The notes under the pieces are model-generated. The model made no database searches. It had not been told where the DNA came from and was given only the letters and a program-made list of their open reading frames with translations. The translations under genes and the position numbers were made by a program. From the NCBI RefSeq assembly GCF_056712565.1, contig NZ_CM160072.1: 64,000 bases of DNA; one strand, given 5' to 3'. Each line of letters begins with the position of its first letter. Positions within the stretch are counted from its first letter, which is position 1. Shown in pieces: positions 5,723 through 6,346 of the stretch.

Positions 5723-6346
5723 ATGTTATCTGTAGTTAAACCTCTTCAGGAATTTGGTAAGCTTGATAAATGTTTGTCCAGATACGGTACGCGCTTCGAG
5801 TTTAATAATGAAAAGCAAGTTATATTTTCCAGTAATGTCAATAGCGAAGATACTTTCGTTATTTTAGAGGGCGTTATCTCTTTGCGTAGAGAAGAAAACG
5901 TACTTATCGGTATTACACAGGCTCCTTATATTATGGGGCTGGCTGATGGTTTAATGAAAAACGATATACCATACAAATTAATATCAGAAGGAAACTGTAC
6001 GGGATATCATTTGCCAGCCAAACAAACCATTACTCTTATTGAACAAAATCAACTCTGGCGAGACGCTTTTTACTGGTTAGCCTGGCAAAATAGAATTCTG
6101 GAATTACGCGACGTTCAGCTCATTGGGCATAATTCCTACGAACAAATCCGCGCGACGTTATTATCAATGATTGACTGGAATGAAGAATTGCGATCACGTA
6201 TTGGCGTGATGAATTATATCCATCAACGTACACGTATATCGCGTTCTGTCGTTGCGGAAGTTCTTGCTGCTTTGCGTAAAGGCGGCTATATCGAAATGAA
6301 TAAAGGCAAACTGGTCGCTATCAACCGTTTGCCTTCAGAGTATTAA
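5723..6346 (+). CDS. yaiV: uncharacterised protein YaiV, putative regulator with C-terminal Crp/Fnr-like HTH
   Basis: ATG at 5723 (MLSVVKPLQ...) preceded by AAGGA; ORF-track start 5678 lies inside the upstream hairpin; C-terminus TRISRSVVAEVLAALRKGGYIEMNKGKLVAIN resembles Crp/Fnr recognition helices. Confidence 0.75.
   Translation: MLSVVKPLQEFGKLDKCLSRYGTRFEFNNEKQVIFSSNVNSEDTFVILEGVISLRREENVLIGITQAPYIMGLADGLMKNDIPYKLISEGNCTGYHLPAKQTITLIEQNQLWRDAFYWLAWQNRILELRDVQLIGHNSYEQIRATLLSMIDWNEELRSRIGVMNYIHQRTRISRSVVAEVLAALRKGGYIEMNKGKLVAINRLPSEY

Follow-up and report, generated by a model that had tools for sequence, protein, structure and literature searches.

Ishihama et al. (2016) list YaiV under the Crp family, together with Crp, Fnr and YeiL (Table 1, PMC4797297), and the same gene was named iprA, for 'inhibitor of hydrogen peroxide resistance', by Herman et al. 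(2016, J Bacteriol 198:2166; as cited in PMC11408624 and PMC12502779). The title of that paper refers to conservation in the Enterobacteriaceae, to a role in oxidative stress resistance and to effects on gene expression in Salmonella Typhimurium. Here we examine iprA, and the autotransporter gene upstream of it, in a stretch of 64,000 nucleotides of Escherichia coli DNA (NCBI RefSeq assembly GCF_056712565.1, contig NZ_CM160072.1), which we call the window. An initial annotation made from the letters of the window had known of no demonstrated function for this gene; given the function reported by Herman et al., as relayed in the citing papers, that statement is outdated.

Citing papers and database names give a rise in H2O2 resistance upon deletion as the phenotype behind the name, and one citing paper reports that IprA influences fim expression in S. 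Typhimurium. In S. Enteritidis the gene is induced by hypochlorite, and low-shear culture induces it in Salmonella. FNR binds near iprA only once H-NS and StpA have been removed, and a HusR peak from systematic evolution of ligands by exponential enrichment (SELEX) lies inside it. The H2O2 phenotype reportedly depends on rpoS. A CyuR motif has been predicted at -75 of yaiV, with an induction by cysteine of about 4.5 log2 (PMC11408624). Finally, a January 2026 preprint (bioRxiv 10.64898/2026.01.14.699485), from which we take the names SeaB and EhaB for the autotransporter, states that seaB adjoins hemB and precedes iprA 'in all cases'.

The identity of iprA, its listing in the Crp family and its neighbourhood are already in the literature, and meeting the gene in the window is the re-discovery of an annotated and named gene. 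What is new here, and where the residual value of the analysis lies, is the status of the pair as a core locus, the cassette copies found elsewhere, a covarying hairpin in the spacer between the two genes, and a conserved palindrome close to the autotransporter promoter. We consider it likely that iprA encodes a divergent Crp/Fnr-superfamily regulator, that it is the second gene of an autotransporter-iprA cassette, and that its product acts beyond its neighbour.

Results

A Crp/Fnr-like fold in a distinct sequence family

What kind of protein is IprA? Judged by its AlphaFold (AF2) model (predicted local distance difference test, pLDDT, 83.9; predicted template modelling score, pTM, 0.71), IprA is a full-length member of the Crp/Fnr structural superfamily that belongs to a sequence family of its own, HTH_46. 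The predicted structure combines an N-terminal eight-stranded beta-roll with a C-terminal winged helix-turn-helix (wHTH) that follows a long helix. This central helix superposes in the full-length structural matches of the model and is rich in tryptophans that are invariant in the alignment (W112, W118 and W121). The modelled wHTH comprises helices 138-151, 154-159, 162-170 and 174-186 and a wing at residues 190-200, and it matches HTH_46 over the full length of the profile (positions 1-68 of 68; E = 6e-31, 106.7 bits against a gathering cutoff of 29.3); the same domain was present in all ten family members tested. The peptide TRISRSVVAEVLAALRKGGYIEMNKGKLVAINRL (residues 170-203), which the initial annotation had likened to the recognition-helix region of Crp/Fnr regulators, spans the recognition helix and the beta-hairpin wing of the model. 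The search by profile and structure that it had suggested, for an HTH or a cyclic-nucleotide-binding-like (cNMP-binding-like) fold, returned HTH_46 as well as the beta-roll and wHTH. The proposed likeness holds for the recognition helix and wing and extends, in the model, to the full-length fold; at the level of sequence, the HTH is not specifically Crp-like.

By sequence profile (PF00027 plus PF13545), IprA does not belong to the Crp/Fnr family: a Pfam search gave zero matches to HTH_Crp_2 (PF13545) at E <= 1, and the score for cNMP_binding (PF00027) fell short of the gathering threshold (17.6 against 27.5 bits). An hhalign comparison with E. coli CRP is colinear across 164 columns (E = 0.037). 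A profile search of PDB sequences returned the wHTH of the FadR family (E = 6e-4) and the cNMP domains of HCN channels (E ~1), and zero Crp-family regulator chains. The FadR-type match is weak and is joined by no Pfam GntR match, and we do not assign the wHTH to the GntR/FadR family. One further similarity was rejected. Phycobilisome linkers were the top phmmer matches in the PDB, with whole-sequence E-values down to 7e-9, which arise from the addition of many weak repeat matches with per-domain i-E-values of at least 3; the underlying pattern, ...LW/Y+..F...NR.LEL..+.L.G...Y.Q, lies at residues ~97-145 (window ~6011-6157), and we treat it as compositional or, probably, due to chance.

Could IprA be a cyclic-nucleotide-responsive paralogue of CRP? 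The modelled beta-roll matches cNMP-binding domains, and the weak PF00027 and HCN-channel matches point in the same direction. However, the PF00027 score is sub-threshold, and we did not find the cassette with which CRP binds the cAMP phosphate (G71, E72, R82, S83): in the hhalign alignment, which is of low confidence and yet colinear, IprA MGLADGLMKNDIPY stands opposite CRP GELGLFEEGQERSA, where CRP carries GELGLF...RSA. We regard a response to cyclic nucleotides as extremely unlikely. Similarly, the four Cys ligands of the FNR [4Fe-4S] cluster, three N-terminal and one central, have no counterpart in IprA, whose only cysteines are C17 and C92; the latter is nearly invariant in the IprA clade.

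A profile search with IprA recovered a family of 654 clusters at 50% identity (478 of them at E <= 1e-10) in full-length alignments, and the most conserved segment of this family is the recognition helix: the pattern SRS..L..LR is kept in 60 members down to 22% identity, with S173, R174, S175 and L184 invariant or nearly so. This conservation bears on whether IprA works through DNA at all. The literature search found no DNA site of IprA, the H2O2 phenotype reportedly depends on rpoS, and the protein might instead act through protein-protein contacts, for example by modulating the stability or activity of RpoS, with the Crp-like fold as a scaffold. However, a recognition helix and wing that are the most conserved parts across 654 clusters are the pattern expected of a DNA-reading surface, and we judge a mechanism independent of DNA improbable. 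Two further results concern the alignments themselves: the broad 60-member alignment (A3) holds no conserved stretch of 7-10 columns, and a genome scan seeded with the Enterobacteriaceae-level alignment (A1) returned copies at the canonical locus only.

As for the distant HTH_46 relatives (28-34% identity), two members adjoin chaperone-usher fimbrial operons, one relative precedes a GGDEF gene, and one adjoins phage holin genes; in addition, one IprA-clade cassette follows a fimbrial operon of this type immediately (loci L011-L013, L097 and L095 are among these). Three distant homologues lie on contigs of less than 3 kb, of which L096 alone was informative, through the tail of an upstream autotransporter. 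These contexts hint at a link between HTH_46 and surface-structure or biofilm loci, in a sample that is compatible with such a link and too small for a claim.

The autotransporter and iprA as a cassette

The autotransporter open reading frame (ORF) ends 85 nt 5' of iprA on the same strand, as the initial annotation had described in placing iprA directly downstream of, and co-oriented with, the autotransporter gene. Its description of the surroundings as an islet does not hold. In a survey of 80 species-level Enterobacteriaceae genomes, the order hemB / autotransporter / iprA / ampH (convergent) / sbmA is conserved, and a complete YaiT-like beta-domain ends 66-145 nt (median 89) 5' of iprA in 71 of the 80 loci. 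These loci place the autotransporter-iprA pair in the conserved core rather than in an islet.

Synteny within the family could reflect mere descent, and hence copies of iprA in other places were taken as the informative cases. Four divergent copies occur in unrelated neighbourhoods: in Citrobacter farmeri (P0075; 59% identity to IprA) between ABC-transporter and LacI-family genes, in C. arsenatis (P0083; 55%) close to a phage integrase, in a metagenomic sequence (P0080; 57%) behind a chaperone-usher operon, and in P0126 (39%), where the upstream fragment ends ...NFSAYTDANYLGGGDVDQNWSANAGVKYTW. All four have a YaiT-like autotransporter 70-90 nt 5' of iprA; for the two Citrobacter cassettes, a comparison of the autotransporter with E. 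coli YaiT gave 56-57% identity. Since all four non-canonical copies keep their autotransporter partner, the genes behave as a two-gene cassette.

The contrary reading, that iprA is an independent global regulator whose adjacency to the autotransporter is incidental, has several points in its favour. The hemB...sbmA context is common to nearly all 80 loci, as vertical descent predicts; in the Enterobacter group a strong canonical terminator lies between the two genes; the spacer holds a predicted promoter for iprA itself; and iprA alone persists in several lineages. Against it stand the four copies elsewhere, which retain the partner at nearly constant spacing down to 39% IprA identity. The same partner at the same spacing argues for selection for the pair or for joint mobility and is hard to explain otherwise, and we consider synteny by inheritance alone unlikely.

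The two genes can nevertheless part. Three Kluyvera species and Pluralibacter have lost the autotransporter and keep iprA with an intact recognition helix, and the Kluyvera case argues for a role in trans. Likewise, iprA is kept beside autotransporter remnants in Salmonella diarizonae, in a single C. amalonaticus locus and in a single C. koseri locus, and beside autotransporter genes disrupted by insertion sequences (IS) in the window and in K-12. In the window, IS2, assigned from the annotation of similar genomes, breaks yaiT/ehaB after about codon 219, and its transposase ORFs of 301 and 136 aa lie on the - strand; the intact orthologue, from strain HS13-1, has 995 aa, and the length difference is 1336 bp. 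The K-12 yaiT carries IS3 (IS3B) at another position. Insertions of IS2 here and IS3 in K-12 at different sites indicate independent inactivations, so that the adhesin has been disabled more than once. In 226 complete genomes at least 80% of window 1250-3400 is matched in one place, which is consistent with IS2 in yaiT, a count made by coverage and not by comparison of junctions.

Two loci of the survey deserve separate mention. In Salmonella enterica subsp. arizonae (L075) the iprA match begins at residue 35, some 160 nt from hemB. The whole autotransporter gene and the 5' end of iprA appear to have been deleted, and iprA is probably a pseudogene there. An assembly titled 'Chryseobacterium sp. 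18061' (L086, CACSKA010000001.1) bears a typical Enterobacteriaceae hemB-autotransporter-iprA-ampH-sbmA locus very similar to the one in 'Citrobacter sp. 18056' (L087), and the assembly is probably mislabelled or contaminated.

Identity, start codon and 3' junction of iprA

RefSeq genomes that are 100% identical to the window over positions 5000-7000 annotate 5723-6346 as "iprA: hydrogen peroxide resistance inhibitor IprA", which confirms the feature marked by the initial annotation to the base. The K-12 MG1655 counterpart, b0375, is annotated as "putative DNA-binding transcriptional regulator IprA", and the two proteins are identical at 205 of 207 residues (99%; two amino-acid differences). 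IprA matches the NCBIfam equivalog NF008810 over profile positions 1-207 of 207 (456 bits against a cutoff of 359; E = 1.5e-137), of 5426 complete E. coli genomes 5420 contain a matching sequence, and the S. Typhimurium protein (STM0374) is 71% identical and lies in identical synteny.

The longest ORF ending at 6346 (+), taken mechanically, begins at ATG 5678 and encodes 222 aa. We rejected this start: the NF008810 alignment begins at residue 16 of the 222-aa ORF, which is the Met at 5723; that Met (or a position within one residue of it) is the start in 28 of 32 aligned homologues; and ATG 5678 lies inside a hairpin stem. AAGGA or AGGA is kept at the Shine-Dalgarno (SD) position of iprA in the group-1 loci. 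At the other end, the stop codons of iprA (+) and ampH (-) abut at 6344-6349 with zero intergenic bases, and in Enterobacter the two genes share 4 nt (L004 7621-7624). Terminators have no space between them, and the convergent transcripts must therefore overlap.

A covarying hairpin and a predicted promoter in the spacer

The spacer between the autotransporter gene and iprA contains a hairpin with a minimum free energy of -20.4 kcal/mol (z = -6.3) that ends 17 nt before the iprA start codon. Across 30 diverse loci, 97.6% of the cells in its alignment are paired, and compensatory double changes occur at 8 of 10 pairs; none of 500 shuffles did as well. Its G.U wobbles fit the + strand only and become mismatches on the other strand. 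This covariation and the strand-specific wobbles identify the hairpin as a structure of the sense-strand RNA. Its U-tract, AUUACUGC, is weak; a consensus terminator scan does not call the hairpin for want of a strong T-run, the consensus scan for promoters and terminators returned nothing useful in the spacer, and Rfam contains no known RNA family that matches window 700-6500. In 28 loci of the Enterobacter/Lelliottia/Leclercia type, the hairpin is replaced by unrelated, canonical GC hairpins with T-runs 35-65 nt upstream. The most economical reading of these sequences is that the spacer hairpin would serve as a leaky terminator of the autotransporter gene.

Is the palindrome that forms this hairpin (5676-5705) an operator for IprA? 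We rejected this candidate, because it covaries as RNA does and is swapped for terminators in the Enterobacter-type loci. The recognition helix is invariant in both groups of loci despite the replacement of the hairpin, and the spacer palindrome is thus not the IprA operator.

A genomic SELEX study reported an H-NS-associated 'constitutive promoter', TTCACT-18-TTTAAT, in the yaiU>yaiV spacer (PMC3946193). Relative to K-12 MG1655, the window has a 2-bp (CT) deletion at 5659/5660, which leaves this promoter a spacing of 16 nt in place of 18 and changes the predicted CyuR motif as well (GAAGAAATA--GGTAATTTAATC). If the promoter fires near 5677, the hairpin would also form a 5'-terminal stem-loop of the iprA mRNA.

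A conserved palindrome upstream of the autotransporter

When the intergenic regions between hemB and the autotransporter gene are aligned, paralogue cassettes included, four conserved blocks stand out. One of them is a second palindrome, GTCCG-N4-CGGAC, which keeps its position in almost every canonical locus and in three cassettes of paralogues (L008, L010 and L097), of which L097 carries the symmetric variant ATCCG-N4-CGGAT. The blocks of the predicted autotransporter promoter are likewise conserved across genera and paralogue cassettes. The four central nucleotides of the palindrome vary, and the changes in its half-sites are single transitions (GTCTG, GTCCA, CGAAC, CAGAC). These transitions are non-compensatory, and for this reason the palindrome looks like a protein site rather than an RNA helix. 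Its single occurrence in the 64-kb window does not by itself exceed chance, and it is the conservation that gives the palindrome weight. In two Kluyvera loci that have lost the autotransporter (L052 and L054) the palindrome has decayed and the promoter hexamers persist. Relative to the predicted promoter the palindrome is centred near -60, where Crp-type activators have their class I sites.

IprA is an attractive candidate for the protein that binds this site. If it does, it could be a local regulator, as the initial annotation had suggested, that activates, counter-silences or autoregulates the H-NS-silenced ehaB/yaiT/seaB-iprA operon. The position near -60 and the 5-N4-5 geometry are typical of class I Crp/Fnr-type sites, and the palindrome and promoter are conserved together in the canonical loci and the three cassettes. 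The nature of the half-site changes, the decay in Kluyvera and the movement of the cassette as a unit in all four divergent copies point in the same direction. So does the best PDB sequence match of the IprA wHTH, which is of the FadR/GntR type; GntR-type regulators classically bind GT...AC palindromes. However, other factors could use the palindrome: it resembles the GlpR-type operator GTTCG-N4-CGAAC, and in Salmonella the intergenic region is also bound by SoxS and H-NS. Moreover, iprA is under purifying selection where both autotransporter and palindrome are gone, it stays intact in E. coli lineages whose autotransporter gene is broken by an IS, and the reported phenotypes are global, so that local regulation cannot be the whole story. 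We regard it as plausible but unproven and, as an account of what IprA does, possible at low confidence.

Work in Salmonella has found the autotransporter region bound by H-NS and its promoter repressed by H-NS (PMC10657408), and a chromatin immunoprecipitation peak of SoxS lies within the hemB<>yaiU intergenic region. The 5' untranslated region (5'-UTR) of the autotransporter is near-invariant across loci; it includes TTGATGGATCAA, a 12-bp palindrome, and an SD-containing hairpin, with a folding z of -2.2 only, and it may serve translational control. In Raoultella, C. koseri and many loci of the Enterobacter group, but not in E. coli, TCCG-N4-CGGA appears a second time, about 0.8-0.9 kb into the coding sequence of the autotransporter (L006 4800-4811; L025 and L028 2800-2811; L029 2805-2816; L046-L080 ~3036-3055); this site could represent conserved coding sequence alone. 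The fimbrial loci of the distant IprA homologues yielded no match to the core TCCG-N4-CGGA. The features of the locus are collected in Table 1.

Table 1. Coordinates of the features of the autotransporter-iprA locus in the window
Feature	Coordinates	Strand	Remarks
Palindrome GTCCG-CAAT-CGGAC, candidate operator	1173..1186	.	16 nt 5' of predicted -35; centred near -60
Predicted autotransporter sigma-70 promoter	1203..1232	+	-35 TTGAAC (1203-1208), 18-nt spacer, -10 CATAAT (1227-1232); consensus only
Autotransporter 5'-UTR elements	1273..1307	+	TTGATGGATCAA (1273-1284); SD-containing hairpin TCCCT-GAGG-AGGGA (1294-1307)
Autotransporter gene yaiT (EhaB/SeaB orthologue)	1314..5637	+	IS2-interrupted at ~1972-3307; ORFs 1314-2057 and 3274-5637
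Predicted iprA sigma-70 promoter	5643..5670	+	-35 TTCACT (5643-5648), -10 TTTAAT (5665-5670); overlaps predicted CyuR motif
RNA hairpin TAATGCCCGTCAA-GGAT-TTGACGGGCATTA	5676..5705	+	13-bp stem, 4-nt loop; terminator-like, weak U-tract
Shine-Dalgarno AAGGA of iprA	5711..5715	+	read from sequence; 7 nt 5' of start
iprA (yaiV, b0375) coding sequence	5723..6346	+	207 aa plus stop; RefSeq coordinates identical
N-terminal 8-stranded beta-roll	5780..6016	+	residues ~20-98; cNMP-binding-like effector domain without cAMP signature
Long central helix	6056..6121	+	residues 112-133; equivalent to CRP C-helix (putative dimer interface); AF2 model
Winged helix-turn-helix	6134..6337	+	residues 138-205; Pfam HTH_46 (PF15977)
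Recognition helix RSVVAEVLAALRK	6242..6280	+	residues 174-186; most conserved segment of family

Discussion

How might a regulator encoded behind an adhesin gene act? We propose that IprA is a dimeric DNA-binding transcription factor that would respond to a ligand or redox signal and not to a cyclic nucleotide. Its expression would be low and would come from transcripts that read through the putative leaky terminator hairpin, from the predicted sigma-70 promoter of the 85-nt spacer under H-NS silencing, or from both, and the protein would act in trans on a regulon beyond its neighbour. In Salmonella, as citing papers describe it, the protein lowers RpoS/KatE-dependent H2O2 resistance and alters fimbrial gene expression. 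By analogy with regulators at the ends of fimbrial operons, such an arrangement would tie the synthesis of a surface adhesin to programmes for stress and for adhesins.

Several points weigh against this proposal. A literature search found no DNA target, ligand or oligomeric state for IprA, and the phenotypes of Herman et al. are taken from citing papers and database names. The sequence links to Crp/Fnr profiles are below threshold, and because of this the homology rests on the predicted fold. The promoter and read-through steps are drawn at the level of consensus sequences, and the logic of adhesin coupling is one of analogy.

A bolder and more speculative extension, which we think unlikely to hold in full, is that the YaiT/EhaB/SeaB autotransporter and iprA form a mobile, self-contained adhesin-regulator cassette in which IprA binds GTCCG-N4-CGGAC near -60 to switch on or autoregulate an H-NS-silenced adhesin. 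The HTH_46 branch of 654 clusters would then be one of adhesin-locus regulators, serving autotransporters and chaperone-usher fimbriae, with a signal other than a nucleotide. IprA is among the few transcription-factor-like proteins of E. coli and Salmonella that have a clear phenotype and whose target, ligand and mechanism are still to be defined. EhaB/SeaB is an autotransporter that binds extracellular matrix, and it is inherited and duplicated together with iprA; a Crp/Fnr fold free of known sensor signatures, this co-inheritance and a defined palindrome make the idea of local regulation directly testable.

Finally, how does IprA compare with better-known systems? The iprA of Salmonella and K-12 is the same gene; the window differs from K-12 by the two amino acids, by the 2-bp spacer deletion and by IS2 in place of IS3. 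Similarly, the gene upstream of iprA is the autotransporter described as EhaB in E. coli and SeaB (YaiU, STM0373) in Salmonella, and our loci differ in the additional cassette copies at sites other than hemB (in Citrobacter and metagenomes) and in the inactivation of the window gene by IS2. Against the classical members of the superfamily (CRP, Vfr, CLP, FNR, FixK2, NtcA, CooA and PrfA), IprA shows an identity of only 11-19%; in contrast to CRP and FNR it has neither the cAMP cassette nor the four-Cys cluster, and its wHTH falls into its own Pfam family. PapX and MrpJ are regulators whose genes lie at the far end of adhesin operons and which act on other surface or motility programmes. In these fimbrial operons the gene for a small DNA-binding regulator comes last, after the adhesin genes, and its product acts in trans; iprA has the same place in the cassette and its product would act likewise, a likeness that we take as functional analogy only. 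PapX has a MarR-like and MrpJ an XRE-like fold, and the fold of IprA differs from both. What IprA would share with them is the pattern: it is reported, in a citing paper, to influence fim, and distant members of HTH_46 adjoin chaperone-usher operons.

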